64,000 nt of DNA from a virus, in IMG/VR virus record IMGVR_UViG_3300036792_000176, positions 1-64,000 of that record, one strand, 5' to 3'. The translations under genes and the position numbers were made by a program. Below, piece by piece: positions 5,513 to 64,000 of this stretch (position 1 is its first letter; every line of letters starts with the position of its first letter). The notes under the pieces were generated by a model. It was not told the origin of the DNA and did no database searches. It was given only the letters and a program-made list of their open reading frames with translations.

Positions 5513-6996
5513 TAAAGAATTCCTCTCATAGTGCGGGCCCACATTTCAACTTCTTCGTCCGTCGGAACCCAGTCTGCCGAGTCCTCGGAACCACTCGCCC
5601 ATGCCTTCGCATGAGCCTTCAGGTGCGCTTCCGCAGCGCTCTTGTTGGTCAGACCTTGGGTCTGGTTGAGCCGCCCAAGGGCAGCGGTTACTCCAGCCTT
5701 GTTAGGCGGAGATCCTGGGTGCTTGTGGTGCGGGAGCGCGTGCGCCGCCTCGGTTGAGGCATCACCGCTCCTGCTACCAGCACAGATTGCCGACAGCGCC
5801 GAAGCCGGGTTGTCGCTGTTGGCCGCGGCTGACATAGCCGCGCTCCCGTCCCACGCCGTGTTGTCGAACGATGTGGCATGGAGATCGACGTGAGACCGCA
5901 GATACACCCGGTGCTCCTCGTCGGCCTCGTTCCTGGCTGGCGCAGCCCAGTAGTCGTGGTCTGTATCGCCAGCCGCCGTAGCATCGTTGTCGCCATCATG
6001 ATCCGGGTCGGCATGCCCGCTCATGTCATGGTGCACATGATCGTGAGTGTGAGGACCGTAGTCGTCCTCTCCCTCGTCGTGGGCGTGCCGATGCATGTCA
6101 TCGTGGCTGTGACCGTGGGAGTGTGTCACATGCGTGTGATCGTGAATGGCGTCGCCATCGTGATCGTGCGCGTGACCGTGGATGCCGTCGTCGTCGTCCG
6201 GATGCCCGAACGCCGCGTGATTGTGCATGTGCCGACCAGTCATCGGTTCATGCGTCACGCTCGTCGAGCTGTGGTACGGGTGCAGCGCAGCATCCGTCAC
6301 AACCGGCGCCATTGTCGCAGTACCCGTGGACGATGTGGTTATCGAGTTGGTCAGCGTGGCTTCCTGGCGGTCCTCGACAGACCCCTTGGAGTCCTGGCGC
6401 GTCTCGGCCACCTTGCCGTGAACGATGATCGAGTCCGCGAGGCCCGCGTCGATAGCCTCCTGCGCGGTGTACCACTTCTCGCCACGCATGATCTCACGCC
6501 AGGCCGCTACCGTCCCGCCGGTCTTCTCGGCGTAGATGGATGCGATGTTGTCGCTGGCATCGTCCAGCATCTCGGCCATCTCGCGCATCTCGGCCGCGTT
6601 GCCAACGGCCATCGACATGCCGTCGTGCACCATCAGCCTGGCATTCTTGGCGATGAGCACCCTGCGGCCAGCCATGGCGATGACGCTGGCTATCGACGCC
6701 GCGAGCCCGTCGATGTAGACGTCGACGTCTCCGCGTGCCTGCAGGCAGTTGTAGATCGTGATGCCGTCGTACACCTCGCCGCCAGGCGAGTTGATGTGGC
6801 AGTCAACGGGTCCGCTGATGTCGGCCAGCTCACGCGCCAGGTCGTTAGCGCTCAGCCCAAAGAAGCCAATCTCGTCGTAGATGTAAAGCTGTGTCGGTCC
6901 GGTGGCCAGGTTCTTGATGCGGTACCACTGAGGAGCCTTGCCCGTAGACAGGGCCATGATCTTCCTGGCCGTGAGCCAGGGTCTGTTACTGCTCAT
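5512..6996 (-). CDS. ClpP-type prohead protease/scaffold with His/Asp-rich insertion
   Basis: LYIYDEIG, HINSPGGEV.DG, DGLAASIASVIAMAG, LMVH, E.W.TA.EA...GLAD. Confidence 0.92.
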   Translation of the reverse strand: MSSNRPWLTARKIMALSTGKAPQWYRIKNLATGPTQLYIYDEIGFFGLSANDLARELADISGPVDCHINSPGGEVYDGITIYNCLQARGDVDVYIDGLAASIASVIAMAGRRVLIAKNARLMVHDGMSMAVGNAAEMREMAEMLDDASDNIASIYAEKTGGTVAAWREIMRGEKWYTAQEAIDAGLADSIIVHGKVAETRQDSKGSVEDRQEATLTNSITTSSTGTATMAPVVTDAALHPYHSSTSVTHEPMTGRHMHNHAAFGHPDDDDGIHGHAHDHDGDAIHDHTHVTHSHGHSHDDMHRHAHDEGEDDYGPHTHDHVHHDMSGHADPDHDGDNDATAAGDTDHDYWAAPARNEADEEHRVYLRSHVDLHATSFDNTAWDGSAAMSAAANSDNPASALSAICAGSRSGDASTEAAHALPHHKHPGSPPNKAGVTAALGRLNQTQGLTNKSAAEAHLKAHAKAWASGSEDSADWVPTDEEVEMWARTMRGIL

Positions 6997-8468
6997 ACCA
7001 TCTCCAGCTCTCGACCATCGGTCATCCTCTGAATTGTGAATGCATCCTTTATCACGCCCGCGTATTCCATCACGAGCATGTCACTCATCTCGGCGGACAG
7101 CTTGTCGCCCGAGCTATCCGGCGTCACCTCGGGCATGCCGCCTATGTCGCCTGCCTGCGGATCCAGCTTCGGGCTCTTACCGGCCTCGATAGCAGGAACT
7201 GTCTGAGATGGTCCGCCGGCAGCAATTGCAGGTGCAGGAGGTCCGACCCAGCGCATATCCGGAAGGCCGACGCACTGCAGTACGTCGTCCGGGTGCCAGC
7301 CGGCAGTTGCCAGGATAACGGCTGCCTTCGACTTGGCAGTCAGCTCGTCATTCGCGTCATTCGAGCTGGTCGGAGTAGGATCGTCGAAGTCCATCTCGCG
7401 ACCGACGCCTGTCGATCCGAACATCGGCAGGTACATGTAGTTCAGAACGGTACGCAGGCGCTTCAGGCGCGGGATCTCATGCCAGCTTGTGTGGACTTCC
7501 TCGGCCGTCTCCGCGTTAGCACGGTTGACATCCTGGCTGTTCCCAAGCATCGCCTGGTGAATGCGATAAGCTTCCCGGATGACATCCCGAGAAAGATTGC
7601 GCAGCTCAACAAACTGCATATCATGCATAGTGTAGGTGTTTGGATCCCATGTGGCACCCTGCTCAAGAACGCCAACACGATGGCCACGTGCAACCCCCTG
7701 GTGCTGCTCACGCCAGCGGTTCGTGAACTCTCGGAACTCAGTATCGCTCAGGCGCTTAGCAAACGTAACGATACCGCCGGGCGTCGCAGAGTTCAGGAAG
7801 AAGTTGCGGGACCACTCGGCCGTGTACTTGGCCGAGTCTATGTCCGCGAGGAGGGACTGGATGGCGGACAGACCACGGTACATATCGATCGGATTCGGGT
7901 ACCGTAGCTGGATCACCTCGCTGGGCAGAAGCGGAACCTGCTCACCGTTTGGCCCGGAGTAAACCCAGCCAGCCAGGAACTTCTCTCGGTCCGGTACAGG
8001 CTCCATCCTGTCAGGACGAACCGGCCACATCTCAAGAGGGACGCCAGTACCGCTCTCACCCCGGTTCAGAACCCAGTACCACTCTCCGACCAGCTCCATG
8101 AACTGCCAGCCGATTTCGCGGAACTGCTCGCCAGTCATGTAGGGGTTCGGACGGTTCCACAGTTCCAGCGCCCAGTGCCGTAGCACTTCAGGCCGCTGGT
8201 CGGATCCCATATCGTGCTTGGAGTACCGAACGCGACCGTCCGTGTTCTTCTGGTACATCTTCCAGCCGCCGGTCGCCTGAGCCCCGGTGCTCAGAAGCTG
8301 AATGATTGCGTACAGCGTCCCTGTACCGCTCATTGTGTTCAGCTGGGTGAAACGGTCCTGCAGGCCAGATCCGTACAGATTGCCGTTGCGCGTGTTCCAG
8401 CTTGAGTTGAACGGGATCGGGCTGGAGCCGGTCCTGGCTCCTAGCGCCCTTATCAGGGACTTTGTCAC
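6993..8468 (-). CDS. Portal protein (HK97 family)
   Basis: L..RPNPYMTG..F, GE.YW, WP.RPDRM, YRGLSAI, FF.N.A.PGG, VLEQG, DMQF.E.R motifs. Confidence 0.93.
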   Translation of the reverse strand: MTKSLIRALGARTGSSPIPFNSSWNTRNGNLYGSGLQDRFTQLNTMSGTGTLYAIIQLLSTGAQATGGWKMYQKNTDGRVRYSKHDMGSDQRPEVLRHWALELWNRPNPYMTGEQFREIGWQFMELVGEWYWVLNRGESGTGVPLEMWPVRPDRMEPVPDREKFLAGWVYSGPNGEQVPLLPSEVIQLRYPNPIDMYRGLSAIQSLLADIDSAKYTAEWSRNFFLNSATPGGIVTFAKRLSDTEFREFTNRWREQHQGVARGHRVGVLEQGATWDPNTYTMHDMQFVELRNLSRDVIREAYRIHQAMLGNSQDVNRANAETAEEVHTSWHEIPRLKRLRTVLNYMYLPMFGSTGVGREMDFDDPTPTSSNDANDELTAKSKAAVILATAGWHPDDVLQCVGLPDMRWVGPPAPAIAAGGPSQTVPAIEAGKSPKLDPQAGDIGGMPEVTPDSSGDKLSAEMSDMLVMEYAGVIKDAFTIQRMTDGRELEMV

Positions 8469-14099: not shown

Positions 14100-14672
14100 T
14101 TACCGGGTTCTGGCGAAATATCCCGGTCCTTTTAGGGTCGGGACAGAATTGCCGTTGCTCTGGGACAGGCCGAACAGCGTCTCGGCATTGTCGGCGGTGT
14201 ACGAAGGCTGGTACCACACCTGCATCTTGGTTCCGTCGTTCACGCTGTCGTTGACCCGGTCCATGAACATGCCGTTCAAGTCGGCTAGCCCGTAGCCCTG
14301 CGAAGACGGAAAGTTTTCAGCCTGGAACGAATTCCAGATCTGGCTGGCATCACCGTTGCACGTCCAGATCTGAAGCCGGAGTCCGTCCGAGGTCCCGGTC
14401 CCGTCGACGCACTTGCCGTTTTGCATGCGGATCTCGTATCCGCCGGTCACGGGTATCGCCACGAACTCCTGGTTGGCGTTATCCAGGCATGACCACTCCT
14501 GGAGCTGTGTACCGTCATCAGTGCTGTTGAATGGGTCGTCGATACAGTGATCGGTGTTCTGCGAGAAGTAGATGGAGGAGTAGTTAGTCGCATACGCCGG
14601 GCTAGCCAGGACGATCGGGGCAGCTAGAGCGGCCACGCCGATGAACGACATGCAGGCACTTATCTTCTTCAC
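14100..14672 (-). CDS. Secreted ricin B (beta-trefoil) lectin domain protein
   Basis: GTG start with AAGGAG RBS; signal peptide ending AYA; C.D...Q.W.C...NQ.F / QxW repeats. Confidence 0.85.
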   Translation of the reverse strand: MKKISACMSFIGVAALAAPIVLASPAYATNYSSIYFSQNTDHCIDDPFNSTDDGTQLQEWSCLDNANQEFVAIPVTGGYEIRMQNGKCVDGTGTSDGLRLQIWTCNGDASQIWNSFQAENFPSSQGYGLADLNGMFMDRVNDSVNDGTKMQVWYQPSYTADNAETLFGLSQSNGNSVPTLKGPGYFARTR

Positions 14673-14724
14673 TGGATCTCCTTTTCTATGCCGAGTATCG
14701 ATTTGTGCCATGGCCTCAGACGGC

Positions 14725-15192
14725 TCATGGCTCGAACTGCATGACACTAAGGTCGCCGACCGTGACCTTGTCTGTTCGCCTGTACATCTGCGATCCAGTA
14801 ACCTCGGAGTCGTCGTTATAGGTTGGCAGCATCATCGTCCCGCCAACCCAGTGCGACCTGGGGATAGCCATCTGGGTGCCATCCCAGTATCCGCCACTCA
14901 GGACGATATTGACACTCTCGCTCTTCGGATCGTCTATGCGGTGGTCTCGCTCTTCTATGCCCGCTAGTGCCCGCTCTTCCATCAGGTTTGGGCCAGCCCA
15001 CTGAGGAAAGTGCCCTTCTTCGAATACGAGCGTCAAGGTGCATGTTTTGCTGAGCCTTTTGGGCGCTGATGGATCAGGGTCTTCCATCACTCCCCGTGAT
15101 ACGCTTATGGTCGTGATCTTATCGTCGTCGAATACCAGTGACATACCGTCTGCTATCTTCGGGGTGATACGTATCTCGGTCATCAGTACCAC
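14725..15192 (-). CDS. Hypothetical protein
   Basis: ORF in minus-strand operon. Confidence 0.5.
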   Translation of the reverse strand: MVLMTEIRITPKIADGMSLVFDDDKITTISVSRGVMEDPDPSAPKRLSKTCTLTLVFEEGHFPQWAGPNLMEERALAGIEERDHRIDDPKSESVNIVLSGGYWDGTQMAIPRSHWVGGTMMLPTYNDDSEVTGSQMYRRTDKVTVGDLSVMQFEP

Positions 15193-50154: not shown

Positions 50155-51093
50155 ATGCGTACGACAATCCGCCGAGCACTGCTCGGCATCAGCGCTGCGG
50201 CGCTGTGCGCGGTTGGCCTGGCTATCCCGGCCGTCGCGAATGCTTCTGCGAGTGTTGCGGCTACGCCGCTCAGTGTCGCTCTGTACCACAACGGTGACAG
50301 CAAGGCGACATGGGACGCCAGCGGCAACCCGGTTCTTACTGCCGGGACGGACGCCGGAACGTCCGCCCAGGTGCAGATCAAGAATGTGCACGGAACGCAG
50401 CTGCCCACCACCGAGCCGTCGTTCACCGCGTCGGCGTCCGGCGGTGGTGACCCGCGCTGGGTGATCGAGCTGCACAACGGCCAGTACCTGTTCGGCTACC
50501 CGTACCAGCCTGCGGCCACGCGCTGGTCGGTCAACCCGGGTGGCAACCAGAACACTGACTACGCAACAGCTGTCGCGGCTGCCGAGGCTGGCGGGTCTGA
50601 TAACTACATCACCGCCGCGTTCATCGTGGACGATCAGGGCGGCAACAGCCTGGGAGCGGTCACCCTGACCGGCGTCCAGTACAACGGGGAGACCCTGGCT
50701 GCTCCTGTCGTGTTCAGCGGCGGGATCGTGAACAAGAACAGCGGCAAGTGCCTGGACGTGACCGGGGCGTTCGGGACGTTTGCGGCCGGACAGGGCCTGC
50801 AGCAGTGGACGTGCGGCGCGGCGGGCGGCGAGGACCAGCACTTCACGCTGACCACTGAGCCGGACAACTCGTCGTACCTAACCATTGGCGGCCTGTACGT
50901 CACCACGAGCACCCAAGGTGCGCAGATGACCCTGGTGACGGCCCCGACCACAATGGTCAAGTCGGGCCCGTACTACAAGTGGACCTCACTGGTCATGGAT
51001 GTGCGGGCGCGCTCGCTCTCCAACGGCGCGGTCGTTCAGGGCTACGCCCAGCAGGCGACTAACAACAACAACCAGCAGTGGTCGCTCCCGTAA
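50155..51093 (+). CDS. Secreted protein with C-terminal ricin B lectin domain
   Basis: Signal peptide; NKNSGKCLDV, QQW.C, NQQW. Confidence 0.85.
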   Translation: MRTTIRRALLGISAAALCAVGLAIPAVANASASVAATPLSVALYHNGDSKATWDASGNPVLTAGTDAGTSAQVQIKNVHGTQLPTTEPSFTASASGGGDPRWVIELHNGQYLFGYPYQPAATRWSVNPGGNQNTDYATAVAAAEAGGSDNYITAAFIVDDQGGNSLGAVTLTGVQYNGETLAAPVVFSGGIVNKNSGKCLDVTGAFGTFAAGQGLQQWTCGAAGGEDQHFTLTTEPDNSSYLTIGGLYVTTSTQGAQMTLVTAPTTMVKSGPYYKWTSLVMDVRARSLSNGAVVQGYAQQATNNNNQQWSLP

Positions 51094-52376: not shown

Positions 52377-52450
52377 GGCGGGGTGGAGCAGTTTGGTAGC
52401 TCGCCGGACTCATAATCCGTAGGTCGTCAGTTCGAATCTGGCCCCCGCTA
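52377..52450 (+). tRNA. tRNA-Met(CAT), initiator-like scaffold
   Basis: GGCGGGG/CCCCGCT acceptor, GAGC/GCTC D stem, CTCATAA loop, TTCGAAT T loop. Confidence 0.9.
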
Positions 52451-52487
52451 CGTGCATCCGCACAATTCCACCCGAGATTGGAATAGA

Positions 52488-53270
52488 ATGGAAGCTACAC
52501 TCAAGGAAGTCATCGAGAAGCCGGTTACCGGCCTCGCTGGCCGTACGCCCAGGGCGCAGTTCGAGATGCCGAGGACCAGCAAGAACAAGAAGGGCAAGGA
52601 GGTGCGCCTGTTCCTGGACGTCTCCGGCTCTGAGCAGGAGCTGGCCTCGCCCGACCTGGACCTCACCAAGGCGCAGGTGATCGAGAACAGCCTGCCCATC
52701 ATCGTCGGCAGGATCGCCAAGTACGACTCCAAGATGGTCGACGAGCAGTCCGGCGGATCTCCCGCCAAGGGAGGCGTGCTCACCTTCGCGTTCAGCTACG
52801 AGGGCGCGTACGAGGGATTCAACAAGGACGAGGCCAAGTTCGAGGACGAGCGCTTCCTGGGTGACATCAGCGAGGCGAACAGCCCCGAGAAGATGGCGCG
52901 CATCCACGCACTCATCGAGATGGGATGCACCACCAACATCGTCCCGGCCCTGGACGCCGCCAAGCTGGCGTACGAAACCGAGTTCCCCAATGGCGATGAG
53001 GACACCGCCATCGTCGACCTGGTGATCACCGACGGCAAGGTCAGTGACCACAAGAAGTTCGAGAACTGGCTCGATGACAACGCCGGTCCGTCGCACGTCA
53101 TCGTCGTGGTCATCATCGGCTATGGCCCCGGGGCGCAGGACGCCAAGAAGCACTACGACCAGATCGCCGACGACAACCGGTACCTCACGGTCGTGTGGCT
53201 CCCGGGCGTCGTCAACCCCGATGAGATCGCCACGGACGTCGAGCTCGCCTGCGGCCTTATCGCCGCCTAG
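52488..53270 (+). CDS. von Willebrand factor A domain protein
   Basis: MIDAS DVSGS, T, VITDG; VIIGYG. Confidence 0.85.
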   Translation: MEATLKEVIEKPVTGLAGRTPRAQFEMPRTSKNKKGKEVRLFLDVSGSEQELASPDLDLTKAQVIENSLPIIVGRIAKYDSKMVDEQSGGSPAKGGVLTFAFSYEGAYEGFNKDEAKFEDERFLGDISEANSPEKMARIHALIEMGCTTNIVPALDAAKLAYETEFPNGDEDTAIVDLVITDGKVSDHKKFENWLDDNAGPSHVIVVVIIGYGPGAQDAKKHYDQIADDNRYLTVVWLPGVVNPDEIATDVELACGLIAA

Positions 53271-53566: not shown

Positions 53567-53917
53567 ATGAGTGACGTACGCGACTCCGCTACCGATCAGC
53601 CCCTGCCTAAGCCTGGCAAGAAGCTTGTCCAGGAGAGGCTTATTGGATTCATACGTGGAGAGCATTTTAGCAACGATGTCTCGTTTGAGATAACAAGCGG
53701 CATAGAGCAGCGCCGAGAGCTGGGGATCAAGAAGTACGGCACTCCCGTTCAGACGTTCAATGGCAGGGATGCGCTTCTTGATGCATGGCAGGAATCTCTT
53801 GACCTGTTGACGTACATTTATCAGCTAGACCTTGAAGAAGGAGGATGGGAGGAAACCCTTCACAGAGTTATAGTGGTAGTAGAGGATCTTGCATATGCAA
53901 GGATACGCAGATCCTGA
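53567..53917 (+). CDS. MazG-like all-alpha NTP pyrophosphatase family protein
   Basis: R..LG..KYG......GRD.L.DA.QE.LD...Y. Confidence 0.6.
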   Translation: MSDVRDSATDQPLPKPGKKLVQERLIGFIRGEHFSNDVSFEITSGIEQRRELGIKKYGTPVQTFNGRDALLDAWQESLDLLTYIYQLDLEEGGWEETLHRVIVVVEDLAYARIRRS

Positions 53918-54123
53918 TGCCAGTTCCAGAGCGCGTGACGGCATCCGTCCGCCCAGAGATATTCGAGGACCTCCGCAAGAGTGTAGAGAGGAATGGGGTC
54001 TCGCAGACGTATATCATAAACCAGGCTATTAAATTGTACGAGTTTGTTGACTCCGAGATCGCTGCTGGTGCAGACATGATACTGCGCCGAGATGGTGTAG
54101 AGAAGCTTATAGAACTGTTCTAG
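53917..54123 (+). CDS. Ribbon-helix-helix DNA-binding protein
   Basis: RVTASV.PE....L......GVSQT.IIN.AI..Y. Confidence 0.7.
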   Translation: MPVPERVTASVRPEIFEDLRKSVERNGVSQTYIINQAIKLYEFVDSEIAAGADMILRRDGVEKLIELF

Positions 54124-54196
54124 GGGTGTTAGCTCAGCCGGTCAGAGCAGCGGACTCATAATCCGCCGGTCGTGGGTTCGAGCCCCACACACCCCA
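54123..54196 (+). tRNA. tRNA with CAT anticodon (Ile2/lysidine-type or elongator Met)
   Basis: Full cloverleaf GGGGTGT/ACACCCC, GCGGA-CTCATAA-TCCGC, GTGGG-TTCGAGC-CCCAC. Confidence 0.92.
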
Positions 54197-54312
54197 CAGG
54201 GAAGGAGGAAGCCGTATGTGAGCACCTAGATCACACGCCGTGCCTTGCGTGTCGTGCACCACAGCGACGGCAGCGGCATCCTTCTTCCCGCAAGGTTGCC
54301 ACGGGATCCCAC

Positions 54313-54997: not shown

Positions 54998-55996
54998 ATG
55001 GCACCGATCATCCTCCCTATCGTAACCACTAGCGAGCGAACGTGCTTCCGTCGCTGCCCACAGAAGTGGTACTGGCGCTACGTTGATGGCATGGTGCCCA
55101 AGGGAGACGTACCGGATGCTCTCTGGTTCGGCATAGGAGTTCACGAGGCGCTCGCTGCATGGTATCTGAAGGGGAAGAAGCGTGGCCCGCATCCCGCTGA
55201 CACCTTCCTGGAGTGGATCGGTGACGAGCAGCGCCACATTCTCGTGTCCCCGGCCGACCACGAGCGCGCCGACGACGAGCGTGCCAAGTTCGACGATGCC
55301 AGGGAACTCGGTGTGTCCATGCTAGAGGGGTATGTCGAGGAGTGGGGCGAGGATAGCCACTGGCAGGTGCTAGCGATCGAGCGCCCATTCAAGGTGCTGG
55401 TCAAGCACAATGGCGTATCTATCGCTCGCTTCTGGAGTACATGGGACGGCGTGTACCGCGATCTGCGTGACGGCCGCATATACCTCATGGAGCACAAGAC
55501 CGCCTCTCAGATACAGACGTCCTACCTCGAGCTCGATGACCAAGCGGGTATCTACTGGGCGCTAGCCGGTGCTATCCTCCGTAAGGAGGGTGTGCTGAAG
55601 GATCGCGAGGAGATCGCTGGCATACAGTACAACTTCCTGCGCAAGAGCAAGCCTGATGAGCGCCCACGGGACGCGAGCGGCGCGTACCTGAATCAGAATG
55701 GCTCTGTGAGCAAGCGTCAGCCGCCTGAGCGCTACGTCCGGCCGGATCCTATCGAGCGCAGCCCCAGAGAGCGCAAGACTCAGCTCGAGCGTCTCGAGGG
55801 TGAGGTGGTCTGGATGAATGCTATGCGTTGGGGCGATATGCCTGTCATCAAGAGCACCCAGAAGGACTGCACATTCTGCGAGTTCTTCATCATGTGCAAG
55901 GCCCACGAGCGCGGTGGTGAGAACTGGAAGCAGATAGCCAATTCTCAGTTCGCCATTGGCGAAGACCCCTACGACCGATACCGAAAGGCCGCCTGA
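54998..55996 (+). CDS. PD-(D/E)XK (RecB/Cas4-like) exonuclease
   Basis: S....F.RCP..W, FG..VH.AL, E..F, D......EHKT, Q...Y, C.FC.F...C. Confidence 0.88.
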   Translation: MAPIILPIVTTSERTCFRRCPQKWYWRYVDGMVPKGDVPDALWFGIGVHEALAAWYLKGKKRGPHPADTFLEWIGDEQRHILVSPADHERADDERAKFDDARELGVSMLEGYVEEWGEDSHWQVLAIERPFKVLVKHNGVSIARFWSTWDGVYRDLRDGRIYLMEHKTASQIQTSYLELDDQAGIYWALAGAILRKEGVLKDREEIAGIQYNFLRKSKPDERPRDASGAYLNQNGSVSKRQPPERYVRPDPIERSPRERKTQLERLEGEVVWMNAMRWGDMPVIKSTQKDCTFCEFFIMCKAHERGGENWKQIANSQFAIGEDPYDRYRKAA

Positions 55997-56044: not shown

Positions 56045-56953
56045 ATGCAGATGGCACCAGTCAAGCGGGGCGCTCGTCGTGGCCGGCCAACCGCTAAGTC
56101 ACAGCGTGAAGAGCCAGAGAGCATGGAGGTTGATGAGGTCGAGGTCGATATTGAGGATCTCGGCTCATTCGCTGAGAGCATCAACATACTGCTCTATGGC
56201 CCTAGTGGTGTGGGGAAGACCGTACTTGCCGGTGGTGCCCCGAACGCTACTTTCTTCTCGACAGAAAAGGGTGTCATTGCGGCTCGCCGAGCAGGCCACA
56301 AGGCTGGGCTGATCCGTGTGCCTACCTGGGAGCACGTCGTGGCAGGCCTCAAGGTGGCAGACGCCAGACTGGGCCCTGAAGACTGGCTTATCGTCGACAG
56401 CATCACGAAGATGCAGATGCTGTACATTCGATGGATCCTCAAGGTCAACAATCAGCGCAACGGCTCTCGTGACCTTGACATCCCTGCCATCCAGGATCAC
56501 CAGAAGTGGCAGAACGGGTACATGCGCTTCATCGACCATATCGTCGATGCGCAGTACAACTCCATACTGATCGCCACGCAGATGATGAAGGAGGACGAGG
56601 AGGGGGAGGACATGATCCTCCCGGCTATCACCGGCAAGGGATACGCGATAGCCGAGTATGTCTGCGCCCAGACAGACGTGAATCTGTACTACAACGTCTC
56701 GGCCACTGCCAGCACCGACGATATGACCATCCGGAGAGCCCTCGCACAACCATATCCCCCTTACCACGCCAAGGACCGGTACAACTGCCTCGGGAAGTTC
56801 GTGGACGTGGAAGAGAACGATTTCGGAGCGATGAATGGAATCATCGGCAGTATCCAGTCAAGCCTCGACGAGCCCGCAAACGACGAGGTACATCAAGTGC
56901 AGCCAGCACAACTCAATCGTCGCACGCGGAAGCGGAATAAGGCTAGTGCATAA
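56045..56953 (+). CDS. AAA_24/Sak4-like ATPase (recombinase)
   Basis: ILLYGPSGVGKT, LIVDSIT, AKDR; lies between nuclease and SSB. Confidence 0.85.
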   Translation: MQMAPVKRGARRGRPTAKSQREEPESMEVDEVEVDIEDLGSFAESINILLYGPSGVGKTVLAGGAPNATFFSTEKGVIAARRAGHKAGLIRVPTWEHVVAGLKVADARLGPEDWLIVDSITKMQMLYIRWILKVNNQRNGSRDLDIPAIQDHQKWQNGYMRFIDHIVDAQYNSILIATQMMKEDEEGEDMILPAITGKGYAIAEYVCAQTDVNLYYNVSATASTDDMTIRRALAQPYPPYHAKDRYNCLGKFVDVEENDFGAMNGIIGSIQSSLDEPANDEVHQVQPAQLNRRTRKRNKASA

Positions 56954-57048: not shown

Positions 57049-57355
57049 ATGGCGATGGGCCCGAGCAGCGATCGTCCTCTGCACCCTGATGAGAAGCTCG
57101 GGATCACCGAGCATAAGCCCGAGACATTCTTCATCGTGACAAATGGAGGTCCGCATCCAGGAACCAGGGTGACGGATGAGGGCCAGATGCCATGGCCACT
57201 ACCCGGCATCCTAGGCGACTCGGGCGGACGGTACATCAAGATCTCCGAGAGCAATCTCGGTCCGCAGGGCGCTGGCAGCCGTATCGTGCGAAGCGCTCTG
57301 TACAAATGGGAGTCGGATACCCCATCCGGCGTCGTAGAAGGAGAGGCAGGCCAAG

Positions 57356-57363
<8 letters not shown>
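57049..57363 (+). CDS. Hypothetical protein
   Basis: ORF overlapping the SSB start. Confidence 0.5.
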
Positions 57364-58225
<862 letters not shown>

Positions 58226-58244
58226 CAATCCCCCTCAAATAGAC

Positions 58245-58279
58245 GTCCGGCCTGGGCTCTCGCGGGGTCCAGGCCGGAC
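58245..58279 (+). terminator. Hairpin
   Basis: GTCCGGCCTGG...CCAGGCCGGAC. Confidence 0.6.
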
Positions 58280-58291
58280 CCAGGAGCAGTT

Positions 58292-58615
58292 GTGAATGAT
58301 CTAGTCTTCAGGGAAATACAGCTCAACGGCAAGATTACGGTAGAGCTTCCGGCGCATGTATGGATCGGATTCCTCTACGAGTACTCCTCCTGTGAATGGA
58401 ACGGCATATGCGCCAATAGCATAGTTGGCGCTATCCAGGACGGCATGCTTAGCCCTCTGTACGTCAAGGAGAGGGAGGCGGCCATACAAGAGCATTCGGC
58501 CAAGCACAATTCGATCTTCGCGTCATTCCTTGGCATGCCCCCTGGCGTTCCGCCGAACATCTCCGGGATAACCGACGTCGAGCCGAACGAGGAAAACGGA
58601 GAATCGACAAGTTGA
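58292..58615 (+). CDS. Hypothetical protein
   Basis: AGGAG RBS, GTG start. Confidence 0.55.
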   Translation: MNDLVFREIQLNGKITVELPAHVWIGFLYEYSSCEWNGICANSIVGAIQDGMLSPLYVKEREAAIQEHSAKHNSIFASFLGMPPGVPPNISGITDVEPNEENGESTS

Positions 58616-59442
58616 TAGTCGAGGTGATTGGGTGCGGACCGGCCGGTCTGGCAGCAGCTCACGCCGCTAAGGGTCTGGGCGCAGACGTCGTCATATACGC
58701 CCCAAAGGCGATGACACCCCAGCGCGGGCCGCTCCTTATGCAGCGTCCAATACCGGGCATCAACACAGGACACCCCGATGGCACGATACACCAGGTCGTT
58801 ATCAACGGAAGCATCCTTGACTACCGATACAAGCTATACGGTGACATCAACATCGGTATCAACGGGGACATCCTGAAGCCGCACTACCATGCCTGGAAGC
58901 ATAACGAGACGTACGAGACACTATGGGGGATGTACGAGCATCTTGTGGTAGACCGTCGAATCAGGGCTACCGAGCTTGCGTCCATGCATCGCCAATCTGA
59001 TCTCGTTGTGAGCACAGCGAATGCGGAGAGCATGTGTATGCGTGGACATACATTCGTCAGCAAGAGTGTTGCGGTAACGACTAGGGCATCGTTTCTCGAT
59101 CAACCTGATAACACGATCATATTCAATGCCGGGGACAGCCCAGACTGGGTTCGTAGCTCACTTGTCTTCGGCGTAGGATCAACAGAGTGGCCGACAGACA
59201 GAGCGCCATCCGGGTCGCACATCATCCGGAAGCCGGTCAGTACGGACTGCGACTGCTATCCTCATGTTCTCCGTACCGGCCGCTTCGGGAAGTGGCAGAA
59301 CGAGACCTGGGTAGATACCGCTTACTGGGACGCGTACAATGCCGTGTACAGCATAAAGCACAAAGAAGAAAGGTACCTTATCGATGGCATCTCAGGCGGG
59401 TTCACAGGAGCAGGACTGCTCGATCTGTCTACTGATAGCTAA
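58612..59442 (+). CDS. FAD/NAD-dependent oxidoreductase (UDP-galactopyranose mutase-like fold)
   Basis: N-terminal VIGCGPAGLAAA; DLVVST; C-terminal GRFG.W. Confidence 0.75.
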   Translation: MIVEVIGCGPAGLAAAHAAKGLGADVVIYAPKAMTPQRGPLLMQRPIPGINTGHPDGTIHQVVINGSILDYRYKLYGDINIGINGDILKPHYHAWKHNETYETLWGMYEHLVVDRRIRATELASMHRQSDLVVSTANAESMCMRGHTFVSKSVAVTTRASFLDQPDNTIIFNAGDSPDWVRSSLVFGVGSTEWPTDRAPSGSHIIRKPVSTDCDCYPHVLRTGRFGKWQNETWVDTAYWDAYNAVYSIKHKEERYLIDGISGGFTGAGLLDLSTDS

Positions 59443-59752
59443 CAGGAGGTACATCGAGCTCCACGAACACGGCGTACTCTTCATACCGAACAATGCGGTC
59501 AAGGAAGGGCATATATGTATCGCCCCTCGCATACATGTCCGTAACGTAATCACCAACCCGGTGATAACCGCCCAGGTGTTCCGGCTCGCTGCCATGCGAG
59601 CGGCGGTACTAGCTCCGGTATGTACCATGAGCACAACGGCCGGTAGTGAGTCGGCAAAGATAATCCCCCATTTCTACATTCACGTGATCCCCTCGACGGA
59701 CGAGGAGATAGCCGAGCAGCTTAAGAAGAGGATCAATGAGTCAGGATCGTAA
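59384..59752 (+). CDS. HIT-family protein with variant triad (HFYIH)
   Basis: CxxC, GH..IAP..H, G......PH.Y.HVIP. Confidence 0.7.
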   Translation: MASQAGSQEQDCSICLLIANRRYIELHEHGVLFIPNNAVKEGHICIAPRIHVRNVITNPVITAQVFRLAAMRAAVLAPVCTMSTTAGSESAKIIPHFYIHVIPSTDEEIAEQLKKRINESGS

Positions 59753-60653
59753 CACAGGCAAAGAAGTCGCCCGCTTCGCTGATGTGGCGATGTACCGCGC
59801 GCAGCACAACGAGATGGCAGACCGTGGAGAGGAGGTCGTGCCCAGGGTATACCTCGTTGCCATGACGCCCAACCCCCTTCGCGTAATGGCGGCCGCTGCG
59901 GAGCTGTACGCTGGACGAGTGGTGACCGACCCGGAGGACATCAGCCGAGAGACAGCGCTCAAATGGTTCGGCGACATGACGCGAACCGCTCTGCAGGCCC
60001 CTCTGGAATTCATCGATCTCCACTTCATGTTCGAGGGCGTGACCCGCGCCTTTACCCACCAGCTCGTGCGGCAGCGTACCGCTGTGTACGTTCAGGAGAG
60101 CCAGCGCTTCGCTGTCAAGGACAACGCTATGCTCGAGGTGTCATACCCTCCGTCCATAGCTAAGCTGAACGATGACCACCCAATGCGCGTCGTCTGGGAC
60201 AAGGCCGTAAGCGAAAACTCCTGGGCGTACAACGCCATGGTCGAGGGCGGAATACCGGCTGAGGATGCCCGCGGTCTTCTGCCCACGAACATCACGACAA
60301 GGGTCCACTACAAGACCAACCTGCGCAACCTCGCTGAGCACGCTGGCATGCGCCTATGCTCGCAGGCCCAGTACGAGTGGAAGCAGGTCTGGTTCGGGAT
60401 TCTCGAGGCCATCAACGAGTACGGTCCAGACGATCAGCGGTGGCAGCAGAAGCGTATCGCAAGCCTGTTCCGTCCAATCTGCTATCGCACCGGTAACTGC
60501 GAGTTCCGGGCAGAGACGGACCGGTTCTGCGCAATCCGCGAGCGCGTTATGGCGCATCACGCCCGTGGCGAGGGGCCACAGACGTGGGTCGACATCGACT
60601 CCAGGGAAGCTCTGCGAGAGGGCGCGGCGCGGCTAGCGCCCGACATGACGTGA
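59736..60653 (+). CDS. thyX: Flavin-dependent thymidylate synthase-like protein
   Basis: PLEF, GV.RA..HQLVRQR....QESQR, G.P.EDAR.LLP, NLR.L, R.C..AQ.E. Confidence 0.9.
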   Translation: MSQDRNTGKEVARFADVAMYRAQHNEMADRGEEVVPRVYLVAMTPNPLRVMAAAAELYAGRVVTDPEDISRETALKWFGDMTRTALQAPLEFIDLHFMFEGVTRAFTHQLVRQRTAVYVQESQRFAVKDNAMLEVSYPPSIAKLNDDHPMRVVWDKAVSENSWAYNAMVEGGIPAEDARGLLPTNITTRVHYKTNLRNLAEHAGMRLCSQAQYEWKQVWFGILEAINEYGPDDQRWQQKRIASLFRPICYRTGNCEFRAETDRFCAIRERVMAHHARGEGPQTWVDIDSREALREGAARLAPDMT

Positions 60654-61652
60654 GCAGCAACTACCGACTCATATGCATGTCGCATCACCCCGCAATAACT
60701 GTAGGCGACGACATGGTTATAGATACAGCCATCAGGTCGTGGGAGAAAGGTGACGACCGGATAGTCGGCCACGAGAATTGCGATCTCATGGTGGGACAGT
60801 TCTCGTACCCTCTCGTGAGCGTAGGCTGCTTCGGTATGAGCATGCCGAACTCAGGTTGCAAGGGGCATCATCCGAACATAGCATGGATGGACACGGAGTG
60901 GCTGCGAGTCCTCTCTTATGTGATGGTTATCGATGACGAGACCGAGGGTATGCTACGCCCATTCGTGAATGGCTGCTGGACGCCAAGAAGAATGGATAGG
61001 CTTCAAAATCTCCTCAAGAGGCAGTGATGGCAAAGCTTACCAGGTGGGGATTTGCAGATGCACTGGTAAGGGCTGGCGTGTTCTCGAAAGATCAGATTAA
61101 TGACATAAGAAGGGTGGTGATAGACTGCCCTTTTAATGACAACCCGGTCATGTACGTAGAGATGTCCACATCCCCGAAGGTTATGGACGTATTCCTGTCC
61201 CTAGATGGCATCAAGATAGTCGGTATCCCAACGGAGGACATTCCGGGTGAGCCAGAAGGAATCGACATACGAGCCGCACGGCCTGAGCAGGGTGCTGAGG
61301 CACCTTCTGAATAAGCACGGGTATGAGGGCATAATCAGTTGTCTGAATAACCTGATGGACAATCCGACGGAACGTTACCTATCGCTATGGCCAGAGGAGG
61401 CGAAAACATATGCCGCAGCTAGAACCAGAAGAGAAGGCTTCAAAGCAATCAATGCCAGCTGGCGGAAAGATCGAACACTTCGCTCTTGAGGCCCGTCTGT
61501 ATGTCGAGCTAGATGGTCCGGGCTCACACTCTGATGCAGTCAGGCAAGTAGAGGACAGGCTGTCTCTGGTCATGTATAAGGACGACCCCTCGGTAAGCGG
61601 CCCAAAGATACGTGTCATAAAAATCGAAGAGGTAAGGACCAGAAGGACTTGA
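60650..61652 (+). CDS. Small hypothetical genes (~60650-61027, 61024-61314, 61247-61489, ~61452-61652)
   Basis: Coupled ORFs; starts uncertain. Confidence 0.45.
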
Positions 61653-62314
61653 GCAAGATGGACGAGAAAGAACTGTTCATATCGATTGACATCGAGACTG
61701 ATGGCCCCTCCCCCGGGCTGAACAGCATGCTATCCCTCGGGGCAGTAGCATTCACGATGGACACCATCGTGGTGGACAGGTTGTATTCATTCTCGAGGAA
61801 CATCCTACCGATAGATGGAGCATTCGAGGACGCCGATACCATGGACTGGTGGGACACCCAGGGAGATGCCTGGGAAATGTGCCACAAGGACCAGGTAGAT
61901 GCCGTCGACGCAATCGGAGAATTCGCTGGGTGGCTCGAGGACCTATCCGCGTACGGTAAGCTAGTAGCGGTAGCGTGGCCAGCTGGCTTCGACTTCACAT
62001 TCGTTAACTGGTACATGCACCAGTTCTACGGAAAGAACCCCCTCGGATTCGCATGCATGGACATCCGCAGCTACGCGAACGGCCTGTTCGCTGTATCCGG
62101 GTACTACGAGAAGATACCGGAAGGTGATCTGTACAAGATATTCAGCGTCAAGCTGGATGACATAAAGCCACACGTAGCAGTAGACGATGCTCTGCGACAG
62201 GGTCGCCTCCTCCACTCTCTCCTCCAGTACGCCGAGGACCTCAGGCGTAACCCGACAGAGGCTAGGGCCTGGCTGAACACAATGGCACGGGCTAACGGAA
62301 CAGGCTTGGAGTAA
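61649..62314 (+). CDS. DEDD 3'-5' exonuclease
   Basis: ISIDIETDG, FDF.F, DI.S, H.A.DDA..Q. Confidence 0.85.
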   Translation: MSKMDEKELFISIDIETDGPSPGLNSMLSLGAVAFTMDTIVVDRLYSFSRNILPIDGAFEDADTMDWWDTQGDAWEMCHKDQVDAVDAIGEFAGWLEDLSAYGKLVAVAWPAGFDFTFVNWYMHQFYGKNPLGFACMDIRSYANGLFAVSGYYEKIPEGDLYKIFSVKLDDIKPHVAVDDALRQGRLLHSLLQYAEDLRRNPTEARAWLNTMARANGTGLE

Positions 62315-63033
62315 TGGCCGAGCCATGCTGTGCCGAGGGTGCATGCTGTTGCATGTCCAACAATAGCGAAAAGGCATGCTTCTGCGTACACAGGAGGATA
62401 GTTACCTCGCAGAGGATCTTCGGCCTGCAGGATATATCAGTAGACATCCCGCTAACCCTGTACCCGGGCGCATTCACGAGATTGTCAGCAATGGGAGAAC
62501 GAGTGACCGAGCACAGCCACCCCCAAACCCTGGAAGCGCATTTCCAGATTGCAATGCTAAAGAACATGGAGTTCGGGAACACCGCTCCGGTTCGTGACGG
62601 CCGATATGTTCAGCTGGGTGCTGGCAAGAAGTTCATCAGGAACTGGGTGAACCTGGACTACCCCGAGTGGGACGCCGAGAAGATGCCGCTGCCGTTCGCT
62701 GACGAGGAAGTAGACGGCATCGCTAGCTACCACACCCTCGACCATATCAAGGCGGTCATCCCTCTCCTCGCGGAGATCCAGCGGGTGCTAGTGCCGGGCG
62801 GATGGTTCGTAAACATCGTGCCGCACTACGACTCGGAGCTATGGCACTCCGACCTTACCCACGTCAGCCAGTTTGGCACCGAGACGTGGCGCAGTATCTT
62901 CAGCACGAGGCACTACAACCACGATGCCGTCGAGGGCCACACAGACTGGCACATGAAGATCAAGTTCAACATGGTGATGGCGGTGACCGAGCGGAACGCC
63001 GTTCTGGTTACAAAGCTAGTCAAGGAGGATTAG
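62314..63033 (+). CDS. Class I SAM-dependent methyltransferase domain protein
   Basis: LGAG....NW.NLD, LPF.D..VD.I...H.L.H, EI.RVL.PGG. Confidence 0.8.
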   Translation: MAEPCCAEGACCCMSNNSEKACFCVHRRIVTSQRIFGLQDISVDIPLTLYPGAFTRLSAMGERVTEHSHPQTLEAHFQIAMLKNMEFGNTAPVRDGRYVQLGAGKKFIRNWVNLDYPEWDAEKMPLPFADEEVDGIASYHTLDHIKAVIPLLAEIQRVLVPGGWFVNIVPHYDSELWHSDLTHVSQFGTETWRSIFSTRHYNHDAVEGHTDWHMKIKFNMVMAVTERNAVLVTKLVKED

Positions 63034-63034
63034 A

Positions 63035-63541
63035 GTGACTGAGATGGATGACCGAACGATGCAACCAGGACAGCACGAAAGAGGAGGTATCCTGGCAAAC
63101 TTCCATAACGAGGGAAGAAGGAGAGAGGCGGAAAGAGTCGCTCACGACCCGCTATCGGGCGGCAATGTAGGTGTTCCTGCTTTCGAGGACAGCATTGCCA
63201 TTCGCGCCGCCAAACAGTTCATGGATGAGTGCGGCCTAGTGCCAACACCGGATGCCACGGGACAACTGGTGGAGGTGTTCCTCCCGTGCCTTGCGATCAT
63301 GTGCCAGCGTGGCTACGACCCTAACGGAGGCACCTGGCGAAAGTCTGGCCGTCTCGGCGCGCTATCAGACGTCAGGAAGAAGTTCGAGCGTCTGTGGGAG
63401 CGTATGTGGATCAATGGAAAGCGTCACGATGACTCGGCGTTCGATCTCATCAACTTCACCGGCTTTCTTCTGCGCTCTGAAAGGGAAGGGTTCGGGGAAT
63501 GGGGAACCCCTAACCTGGACGGCCTTATGCTCGAGGAGTAA
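63035..63541 (+). CDS. Nmad1/DUF1599-like (MazG-related) nucleotide-modification-associated protein
   Basis: W...G..G...D..KK..RL.......DD...DLIN(F/Y). Confidence 0.55.
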   Translation: MTEMDDRTMQPGQHERGGILANFHNEGRRREAERVAHDPLSGGNVGVPAFEDSIAIRAAKQFMDECGLVPTPDATGQLVEVFLPCLAIMCQRGYDPNGGTWRKSGRLGALSDVRKKFERLWERMWINGKRHDDSAFDLINFTGFLLRSEREGFGEWGTPNLDGLMLEE

Positions 63542-63543
63542 CT

Positions 63544-63810
63544 ATGTCTCATATCATTCTGGCGGCAGCGATACTCGTTGTCCTGGGGGTATTCTTGTTC
63601 GCTACCCTCACGCGAGCGATGTCGCGCTCTGGTCTAACTGTCATTACGAGCGGGGACCCGGACTACAAGATGGTCCTGTGTACCGCAAAGGGGTGCAAGG
63701 ACGGGTACATAGTCCTCCGCGGAAGCCATGACATGGTCAGCGCCAATCTGTTCCCGTGCGCGATATGCCATGGAACAGGCCATGTCATGAGGAAGGTGAC
63801 GAATGCCTAG
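63544..63810 (+). CDS. Small membrane-anchored protein with DnaJ-like Cys motif
   Basis: N-terminal TM; C...C.DG, C..C.GTG. Confidence 0.55.
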   Translation: MSHIILAAAILVVLGVFLFATLTRAMSRSGLTVITSGDPDYKMVLCTAKGCKDGYIVLRGSHDMVSANLFPCAICHGTGHVMRKVTNA

Positions 63811-64000
63811 TAGTCCTGAGGACGAGCTGAGGGAAGCTACGATCGGACTCGCCAACTCGTACAACTACGTGTGCTCGTTCGGCAATGCGGACGATTACGT
63901 GAATGAGGAGAACATAACAACCAACACATTCAAGTTCACTCACGATGGCAAGATGTTCAGGGCTACCGTAGTGAAGGAGGGGGATGGTAAAGAAGAAGAA
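63803..64000 (+). CDS. Hypothetical protein (runs off window edge)
   Basis: MPSSPEDELREATIG... open to end of window. Confidence 0.5.
   Translation, partial: MPSSPEDELREATIGLANSYNYVCSFGNADDYVNEENITTNTFKFTHDGKMFRATVVKEGDGKEEE

Follow-up and report, generated by a model that had tools for sequence, protein, structure and literature searches.

What is made by a phage gene cluster in which a ThyX-like protein, with the fold of the flavin-dependent thymidylate synthases, stands among a small flavoprotein, a methyltransferase, an exonuclease and a protein resembling Nmad1: ordinary thymidylate, or something derived from it? The question is raised by positions 58,292 to 63,541 of the window, by which is meant the whole stretch of 64,000 bases analysed, the first part of the 87,997-base IMG/VR virus record IMGVR_UViG_3300036792_000176 (CheckV completeness 93%; GC content ~0.58). 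The cluster is the nucleotide-enzyme part of a phage replication operon, and it is best read as a conserved tailoring module rather than a run of loose neighbours. Tentatively, its end product is taken to be a nucleotide or DNA base of the thymidine type that is not plain T, and the reading to which we commit, by analogy, is that this product would be related to the hypermodified thymidine of the PB1-like Pseudomonas phages. An earlier note on the same DNA had proposed that the cluster makes a non-standard nucleotide; the conserved set of genes, the rewired ThyX and the core shared with PB1-like phages speak for that proposal, while the match it drew to TG/CA avoidance, the RQR motif, the HIT assignment and the MazG label do not.

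A conserved module in the replication region

The six genes on which the earlier note had rested are all present as open reading frames (ORFs) on the plus strand, and they are tightly packed: a flavin adenine dinucleotide (FAD) flavoprotein of the kind annotated 'oxidoreductase' (58612-59442), a HIT-like protein (59384-59752), the ThyX-like flavoenzyme, which belongs to a His-less four-cysteine clade (59736-60653; motif HQLVRQRTAVYVQESQRF), a DEDD exonuclease (61649-62314), a class I S-adenosylmethionine (SAM) methyltransferase (62314-63033) and a DUF1599/Nmad1-like helical protein (63035-63541). The junctions at the first of these genes overlap by 4, 59 and 17 nucleotides (nt); at the later ones the genes overlap by 4 nt or 1 nt or stand 1-2 nt apart, with a single 95-nt gap at 61315-61409. 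Gene families here and elsewhere in the record were assigned by Pfam and PHROG scans of ORFs, many of which fall in no family.

Conservation was judged from a survey of 80 IMG/VR loci that carry a ThyX-like gene, searched using every protein encoded from 53567 to 69000. The flavoprotein was matched at 67 of the 80, the PHP domain of a split DnaE polymerase at 64, the DnaE core at 61 and the Nmad1-like protein at 54, and upstream genes for a Sak4-like ATPase, an acidic protein and a Cas4-like exonuclease were matched at 51, 50 and 45 respectively. The methyltransferase follows at 15 loci, the DEDD exonuclease at 5 and the HIT-like gene at 4. Of the 13 loci at which the flavoprotein was not matched, 11 carry less than 4.3 kb upstream of ThyX, and the other two (L059 and L081) have the DnaE-first order and just 1.0 and 2.6 kb upstream of PHP; a clear absence of the flavoprotein was seen at no surveyed locus. 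Two gene orders recur. In the nearer relatives, as in the window, it is Cas4, Sak4, acidic protein, flavoprotein, ThyX, Nmad1-like, PHP, DnaE, and in the more distant relatives it is flavoprotein, (Nmad1-like), PHP, DnaE, ThyX.

The conserved core therefore consists of Cas4, Sak4, the acidic protein, the flavoprotein, the ThyX-like protein, the DUF1599/Nmad1-like protein and the split DnaE; the genes for the HIT-like protein, the exonuclease and the methyltransferase are accessories to it. Within the core the flavoprotein, the ThyX-like protein and the Nmad1-like protein form a conserved co-occurring set for which chance neighbourhood is ruled out, so that an enzyme of the ThyX fold travels with a small FAD flavoprotein, a DUF1599/Nmad1-like protein and the phage's own split DnaE.

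The module opens, upstream of the cluster first noted, with the Cas4/RecB-like PD-(D/E)XK exonuclease gene (54998-55996; Pfam PDDEXK_1 1.3e-15, phrog_1218 1.6e-84), followed by the gene for the Sak4-like AAA_24 recombination ATPase (56045-56953; Pfam AAA_24 4.8e-19, phrog_124 6e-38) and that for the conserved protein with a long acidic Glu/Asp tract (57356-58225), which in matched loci always sits between Sak4 and the flavoprotein. At the other end the PHP-domain gene starts at 63984, within the last bases of the window, and continues to 64922 of the record (Pfam PHP 1.1e-29), and the polymerase core gene lies wholly beyond the window at 65598-67976 (DNA_pol3_alpha 6e-63, phrog_11165 2e-257). 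Those of these genes that begin within the window are all on the plus strand. The two DnaE parts are separated by ~0.7 kb that holds small ORFs only.

The ThyX-like protein and its active site

That the protein belongs to the ThyX family was borne out, with Pfam Thy1 scoring 120.2 bits against a cut-off of 24.8 (expectation (E) value 1.2e-34) over residues 40-229, and the signature had been read correctly, the translation being RQRTAVYVQES. The earlier note had pointed to RQR-x7-S in place of the canonical RHR-x7-S; the replacement is present, and it is the norm of the clade. Among the best 120 database homologues (60-100% identity), Gln stands at the position of the RHR His in every one; 105 read RQR-x7-S (S-x-R), 10 read RQR-x8-S, and in the remaining 5 the first Arg is shifted or lost with Gln and the second Arg retained. 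In an alignment of 46 of the 120, chosen with preference for longer contigs and including all five motif exceptions, Q113, R114, E121, S122 and R124 are invariant. Further afield the motif is RQR in PBI1 gp65 and Ranch gp84, RSR in Streptomyces phage Lizz and RTR in the PB1-like phages. Since RQR is found clade-wide it is not distinctive of this phage.

Compared by family-profile alignment with the Thermotoga maritima enzyme, for which chain numbering minus 12 gives the residue names of PMC3498832, the protein keeps Q75, R78, R80, S88, R90, R147 and R174. The residues that have changed are H53 (here L), H59 (F), H79 (Q), Y91 (F) and H178 (Q). R78, R80, S88 and R90 are contacts of deoxyuridine monophosphate (dUMP) in the T. 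maritima enzyme (PMC3498832). The dUMP-contact residues, together with R147 and R174, are invariant in the 46-sequence alignment save for the first Arg, which 5 of the 46 sequences have shifted or lost. As the residues of the dUMP site are kept, binding of dUMP and FAD is to be expected. In a wider alignment of 14 sequences, with actinophage-like and PB1-like members, the position of H53 is Leu or Ile in all 14; H53 reportedly stacks on folate, as Koehn et al. are said to have described in 2012. The canonical ThyX histidines that could be aligned are all lost in this wider clade.

Conserved in the clade as well are four cysteines: C208, C249 and C265 are present in 14 of the 14 sequences and C255 in 13, and C249, C255 and C265 fall within a C-terminal extension that was seen in no solved ThyX chain aligned. 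Canonical ThyX (T. maritima, Mycobacterium tuberculosis, PBCV-1; PF02511, TIGR02170) thus shares the fold family and the dUMP-contact residues with the protein considered here, and differs from it in that here the histidines are replaced, there is a C-terminal extension, the four cysteines are present and TIGR02170 is below its cut-off. The last of these is a near miss, as the NCBIfam thyX equivalog scores 85.8 bits, just under the cut-off of 87.9. The best sequence match in the PDB reaches only E 1e-7. Either these four cysteines or the Cys3His set of the flavoprotein, described below, is a candidate for a metal or iron-sulfur site.

Of 12 longer ThyX-like homologues, 4 (P0121, P0122, P0123 and P0127) have the intein-splicing domain PF14890, and one of these four adds a helix-turn-helix domain. 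No fusion to a partner enzyme was found in the 12, none having an enzyme domain beyond Thy1, and the longer forms among the near-length matches have Cys-rich N-terminal extensions only. A homologue of the thymidylate synthase ThyA (PF00303) was found in none of five records (this one, DL68, PBI1, Ranch and Lizz) by a search that was positive in 10 of 14 control genomes.

The partner flavoprotein

The assignment as an FAD protein was confirmed. The protein encoded at 58612-59442 matches phrog_8720 at 7e-45 and its predicted structure is that of a two-domain FAD protein, with its Pfam matches being of Rossmann level and below cut-off. The AF2 model has a pLDDT of 93 and, in Foldseek searches, finds two-domain FAD folds at E ~1e-7; VIA-align gives Z scores of 14.9 to 4dsg (UDP-galactopyranose mutase), 13.8 to 1sez (protoporphyrinogen oxidase) and 13.4 to 3gmb, with several group A monooxygenases at Z ~13. 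As the top rows lie only about one Z unit apart, a choice of sub-family is impossible. The flavoprotein is best described from its model as a minimal two-domain FAD fold predicted to be nearest to UDP-galactopyranose mutase, protoporphyrinogen oxidase and the group A monooxygenases, with which it aligns over ~230-250 residues; it is 276 amino acids (aa) long compared with the 365-473 aa of those enzymes, and identity is 10-16%.

The N-terminal GCGPAG motif is of the GxGxxG type. In an alignment of the window protein with 58 of its 67 relatives, 9 near-duplicates having been dropped, Cys142, His146, Cys213 and Cys215 are nearly invariant. The nearest ESM Atlas clusters are 95-98% viral.

A methyltransferase of narrow distribution

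The methyltransferase assignment of the earlier note is sound (Methyltransf_11 39.2 bits against 21.2; phrog_6636 5.8e-44). The enzyme is of the small-molecule type and plays no part in plain synthesis of thymidine monophosphate (dTMP). Its distribution is narrow: tblastn found it in 131 of 50,697 phage records, from phages of Pseudomonas (58), Gordonia (45), Mycobacterium (26), Burkholderia (1) and Salmonella (1), and the ThyX-like gene is also found in phages of the first four of these genera. In two Gordonia phages the methyltransferase gene adjoins an 'oxidoreductase', and a direct search of five PB1-like records found it in 14-1, DL68 and WTB and not in F8 or F13. In phage 14-1 it is at record positions 6707-7207 amid 'hypothetical' genes, with no ThyX-like gene within the 8.4 kb shown. 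That it is kept in Pbunaviruses though not beside the ThyX-like gene, as in 14-1, argues for functional dependence over linkage.

Homologues align from residue ~71-99 onward, and the ORF in the window opens with a Cys-rich stretch of ~70-95 aa (62314-62600). Among the 14 locus homologues that were called, only the closest (from L014, 243 aa) is long enough for such a stretch, the rest being of 166-214 aa. The stretch could be an extra small domain or a sign that the true methyltransferase start lies further in.

The Nmad1-like, HIT-like and DEDD proteins

For the protein encoded at 63035-63541, called Nmad1-like from the outset, the label draws on remote family and fold support, as the window protein itself has no Pfam or PHROG match. 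Three of 47 family members match DUF1599 (PF07659), the best at E 0.01 and so below cut-off, and the neighbouring ESM Atlas clusters contain 32% and 59% DUF1599 members. The ordered core of the AF2 model, residues ~48-165, is above pLDDT 90, and the disordered N-terminus differs among relatives. VIA-align gives Z 9.0 to AF_0060 (2p06) and 5.3-6.4 to HisE/MazG chains, keeping in mind that helical bundles often score so. A PF07659 search of the whole record gave nothing at E 10, tblastn of the 168-aa protein against phages gave no match at E 0.01, and Foldseek of its model against the PDB gave nothing at E <=0.001. The helical core resembles the all-alpha fold of DUF1599 (PF07659) and MazG-HisE; the difference is in the conserved pair of glutamates that active MazG enzymes typically carry. 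As the alignment of the Nmad1-like family has no such pair, a catalytic role is doubtful.

The second MazG-like gene that had been proposed at 53567 (53567-53917, plus strand) could not be confirmed. The ORF has no Pfam, NCBIfam or PDB match and is matched only by PHROG families with no assigned function, and of the 89 phage records with homologues all 15 listed annotate them as 'hypothetical'. Neither this ORF nor Ranch gp81 ('MazG-like') can be equated with the Nmad1-like family, as hhalign gave no meaningful match.

The HIT label was based on a resemblance that is present and weak: the Pfam match has E 0.0024 and its 18.9 bits are under the cut-off of 21.5 (phrog_3962, 3e-5). The triad motif of HIT proteins is H-x-H-x-H-x-x. 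In the window the sequence is H-F-Y-I-H, with the middle His replaced by Tyr, and three relatives have H-M-Y-V-H, H-M-Y-A-M and H-M-Y-V-D; the most distant of the five proteins, from L015, alone reads H-V-H-V-H. The degenerate triad suggests that the protein, which also has an N-terminal CxxC, is not a standard HIT hydrolase. Its gene occupies the spot where many relatives carry a phosphatase.

The DEDD exonuclease (DnaQ/Rv2179c-like, 3'-5') was correctly recognized, as PF16473 (Rv2179c-like) scores 39 bits against a cut-off of 27 and the PDB entry 7t2s, a '3'-5' exonuclease', is matched at E 2.2e-22 over residues 6-191. It also matches phrog_255 and phrog_192 ('DNA polymerase exonuclease subunit') and, weakly, the NCBIfam entries for the PolC exonuclease region, and D-I-E, the first of the exonuclease motifs, can be read in its sequence.

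Actinophage relatives and PB1-like phages

At the DNA level the region 58000-64000 has no match in the phage collection searched with megablast. The best cultured relatives of the ThyX-like gene are in actinobacteriophages, at protein identities of at most 41%. A set of cultured actinophages (PBI1 of cluster D, Ranch, TinyMiny and Lizz) has the same families as are found here, annotated as 'oxidoreductase', 'phosphatase', (methyltransferase), 'DnaE-like DNA polymerase III' and 'ThyX-like thymidylate synthase', and the flavoprotein profile finds a match in each of PBI1, Ranch and Lizz (E 3e-77, 4e-62 and 6e-86, respectively). The split DnaE also occurs in Microbacterium phage TinyMiny and has been described in Microbacterium cluster EF (PMC7302621). 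In comparison with the cultured actinophages, here ThyX is upstream of DnaE, the HAD phosphatase was not found and the HIT-like gene stands between the flavoprotein and ThyX.

The PB1-like phages share the His-less ThyX-like gene with its four cysteines, a distant homologue of the flavoprotein encoded upstream of that gene, a weakly Nmad1-like segment, DnaE and an exonuclease of the DnaQ type, with the gene order unchanged; they differ in being myoviruses of Proteobacteria and in having the Nmad1-like piece fused to a HAD phosphatase. In DL68, gp50 is ThyX-like (30% identity, E 2e-28) with RTR and the same four cysteines; the polymerase is 36% identical to the DnaE core (E 6e-89); gp44 matches the flavoprotein profile (hhalign 94.8%, E 5e-8) over 140 columns, well past the Rossmann motif; gp52 is a HAD phosphatase (Pfam 3.6e-10) whose C-terminal end is weakly Nmad1-like (E 9e-4); and gp53 belongs to the RNase_T-type exonucleases. 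In Burkholderia phage WTB a 324-aa protein aligns with the flavoprotein profile over 168 columns (hhalign 94.2%), Escherichia phage F13 (Wifcevirus) has the same gene order with a flavoprotein match at the Rossmann level only, and the third-ranking fold match of the flavoprotein in BFVD comes from Pbunavirus PA5 (E 2.4e-8). DL68, 14-1 and WTB share the methyltransferase family as well with the phage considered here.

The DNA of two such phages has been analysed. Virion DNA of the Pbunaviruses F8 and 14-1 resists five enzymes with TG in their sites (Yee et al. 2025 preprint, PMC12191111), and liquid chromatography-mass spectrometry revealed a new nucleoside in each, of mass 362 in F8 and 390 in 14-1 (PMC12191111). 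The modified thymidine replaces about a quarter of T, in a TG context, in both (PMC12191111), and the nucleosides were read as sugar-alcohol and aldopentose derivatives of thymidine (PMC12191111). The preprint, in the text available, assigns no biosynthetic genes, and the word 'thymidylate' is absent from that text (PMC12191111). By our own arithmetic the masses fit an O-linked or C-linked polyol on thymidine (242 + 120 = 362, 242 + 148 = 390). The gap of 28 between the two is CO in the reading of the preprint authors and could by the same arithmetic be two methyl groups, between which nominal masses cannot discriminate. That the 28-unit gap tracks the methyltransferase, present in 14-1 and not found in F8, is a lead rather than a finding, with two phages to go on. 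No published link of the ThyX-like gene to DNA modification in Pbunaviruses or actinophages turned up in the literature searches, which were judged mainly from their listings.

Known routes to hypermodified thymidine offer a parallel with the same logic, in which a C5 handle is placed on dUMP and is then decorated: in phages M6, ViI, SP10 and PhiW-14 the pathway starts with a dUMP hydroxymethylase of the ThyA family, and the later steps occur on DNA (Lee et al., PMC8989533). The difference is that in the record neither a ThyA homologue nor, among the ORFs scanned, a kinase or transferase family was found. Pathways of the ThyA type include a 5-hydroxymethyluracil DNA kinase and group transferases.

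What the module may make

On the reading tentatively preferred here, that the module ends in a thymidine-type product other than plain T, the ThyX-like enzyme would bind dUMP and FAD and attach a carbon substituent at C5. The flavoprotein, the SAM methyltransferase and the HIT-like protein would process the resulting nucleotide or its donor, the Nmad1-like protein would bind or hydrolyse a competing nucleotide, and DnaE would use the product with the DEDD exonuclease as proofreader. The rewired surroundings of the ThyX site, a flavoprotein of oxidase/mutase fold and a module-linked methyltransferase together mean that plain dTMP synthesis explains the module poorly. Among phages of this kind, it is only in the PB1-like group that the DNA has been examined chemically, and there it proved to be modified, which lends support to a tailoring role.

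A more specific and less likely form of the proposal is that the ThyX-like protein, rather than being a thymidylate synthase, represents a new kind of flavin-dependent enzyme, one that attaches a non-methyl group to C5 of dUMP, and that the cassette is the gene set behind the TG-thymidine modification of Pbunaviruses, at work also in a large group of actinophage-like viruses. The C5 group would then be a hydroxymethyl, or a sugar-derived carbon chain added via a flavin-N5 adduct as in UDP-galactopyranose mutase, with tailoring of the product left to the flavoprotein partner and the methyltransferase of restricted lineage.

Somewhat less probable than a product other than plain T, and still to be taken seriously, is ordinary thymidylate supply, with a divergent genuine ThyX making dTMP for the phage DnaE and the flavoprotein as its helper. 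The flavoprotein might, for instance, give reducing power to an enzyme without the histidines of the site for reduced nicotinamide adenine dinucleotide phosphate (NADPH), the Nmad1-like protein would clean the nucleotide pool, and the HIT-like protein, the methyltransferase and the exonuclease would be unrelated accessory genes of the replication operon. The Thy1 match at E 1.2e-34, the TIGR02170 score only 2 bits short of cut-off and the retained dUMP contacts all suit such a role, as does the standing of the ThyX-like gene, amid replication genes, as the only thymidylate-synthase homologue of the record. Streptomyces phage Lizz has in addition a dCMP deaminase, the classical supplier of dUMP; inteins usually sit within essential enzymes, and they were met in 4 of the 12 longer homologues; and this genome has no significant TG signature. 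It is harder to reconcile with thymidylate supply that the fold of the flavoprotein is one of oxidases, monooxygenases and mutases and not of flavin reductases, or that the flavoprotein and the Nmad1-like protein co-occur, and a genus-restricted methyltransferase goes with the module, with no role for them in dTMP synthesis. The alignable canonical histidines are replaced clade-wide and a four-cysteine motif is present; and in the PB1-like phages, whose core is the same, thymidine is modified and other candidate genes for the modification are not known.

That there is no common pathway at all, the genes being independent passengers of a mosaic replication region that co-occur by shared descent, with the flavoprotein, the methyltransferase and the HIT-like protein acting on host metabolites, RNA or defence molecules, is improbable: it would suit the sporadic HIT-like gene (4/80), DEDD exonuclease (5/80) and small ORFs (0-1/80), the variable order, in which the flavoprotein is beside ThyX or 5-9 kb off across DnaE, and the position of the 14-1 methyltransferase amid hypothetical genes away from the ThyX-like gene, but the flavoprotein, the ThyX-like protein, the Nmad1-like protein and DnaE are kept together in Pseudomonas myoviruses and actinophage siphoviruses alike, which were seen to share little else. 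The small remainder of the probability goes to something else.

Several points weigh against a product other than plain T. Modification of the DNA of this particular phage is a prediction from the genes of the module alone; for actinophage relatives no chemistry is on record, measurement being confined to F8 and 14-1. As the modification genes of Pbunaviruses are unassigned, their modified thymidine is tied to the module by shared gene content only, and the flavoprotein matches within the PB1-like group are remote, being from hhalign against single sequences and, for F13, of Rossmann level. With all dUMP contacts kept, plain dTMP synthesis is fully possible for the ThyX-like protein. Residues of the RHR motif hydrogen-bond the phosphate and ribityl of FAD (review, PMC6514825), and Gln may fill the role of the His in this. 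The overlap of the methyltransferase with the ThyX-like gene was judged from host-genus counts and not record by record. For the DEDD exonuclease the simplest role is in replication or in proofreading for DnaE, in line with the WTB annotation, and the HIT-like gene is rare and its triad degenerate.

The genome itself adds to these points. The avoidance of TG/CA with which the earlier note had matched its proposal is not there, the symmetrised odds ratio being 1.06 for the genome and 1.056 for the window, with TGCA at 0.94 of expectation. A restriction-site test compared palindromic hexamers with and without TG/CA, using maximal-order Markov expectations and a GC-stratified, one-sided permutation. 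The positive control, DL68, gave a mean z difference (TG-containing minus TG-free) of 1.36 (p 0.004), PBI1 gave 0.53 (p 0.059), and the present record gave 0.29 (p 0.19), and so no significant TG-linked signature. For a pattern specific to TG some step would have to act on the DNA itself, and no candidate for such a step was seen. Of the genes beyond the window that the earlier note had suggested looking for, the split DnaE polymerase was found, while kinase and glycosyltransferase genes were not: Pfam and PHROG scans of ORFs across the 87,997-base record, with no family-specific search made, turned up neither of these, nor any HAD phosphatase or SDR.

The restriction-site statistic neither supports nor excludes modification here. 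Known base-replacement genes, of the PurZ type or otherwise, did not appear in the same scans. The six most avoided hexamers (GCCGGC, GGCGCC, ACGCGT, AGGCCT, CCGCGG and AGCGCT) are all TG-free, and three are pure G+C. In the whole record GGCGCC was observed 7 times against an expected 33.9 and GCCGGC 22 times against 57.0, with ACGCGT, AGGCCT and CCGCGG likewise low. This scarcity of GC-rich hexamers looks like the pressure of host restriction systems that cut GC-rich sites.

Pbunaviruses are widely used therapeutic phages, and the cassette is an obvious candidate for the source of their modified thymidine; it now reaches an uncultured actinophage-like lineage with accessory genes of its own, a HIT-like protein and the module-linked methyltransferase. 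Were the chemistry new, this would be the first known case of DNA hypermodification fed by an enzyme of the ThyX family, with relevance to restriction evasion, sequencing artefacts and enzyme discovery. Were only dTMP made, the 'essential' ThyX histidines would be dispensable and a dedicated flavoprotein partner would exist.

Small genes within the cluster

Between and around the conserved genes are five small plus-strand ORFs with no family hits. The first, of 107 aa (58292-58615), is present at 6 of the 80 loci, and its stop overlaps the flavoprotein start by 4 nt. Three lie between the ThyX-like gene and the exonuclease gene: one of ~117-147 aa (60650-61027) whose start is uncertain (60584, 60650 or 60674) and which is shared with one locus, L014, only; one of 96 aa (61024-61314); and one of 80 aa (61410-61652), a weak gene call with low third-position GC. 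The last two are each matched at a single locus, as is an ORF of 88 aa with a Cys-rich C-terminus (63544-63810) that follows the Nmad1-like gene. A 117-aa ORF downstream of DnaE was matched at 7 loci and a 104-aa ORF at 57049 at 5, and the remaining small ORFs at 0-2.

Other features of the record

The minus strand carries, at 4-11 kb, the genes for capsid, protease, portal and terminase, and a tape-measure gene is close to the far end of the record. From ~17.7 kb on nearly all genes called are on the plus strand, and this arm encodes a primase-polymerase/helicase, a ParB-like protein and an SNF2 helicase. Upstream of the module two tRNA-Met (CAT) genes, on the plus strand at 52377-52451 and 54123-54197 and so spaced 1.7 kb apart, bracket a 272-aa ORF (52452-53270) and the ORF at 53567. 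Ricin-type beta-trefoil lectin domains are encoded by two genes, one in the replication arm (50155-51093, plus strand) and one among the structural genes (14100-14747, minus strand).

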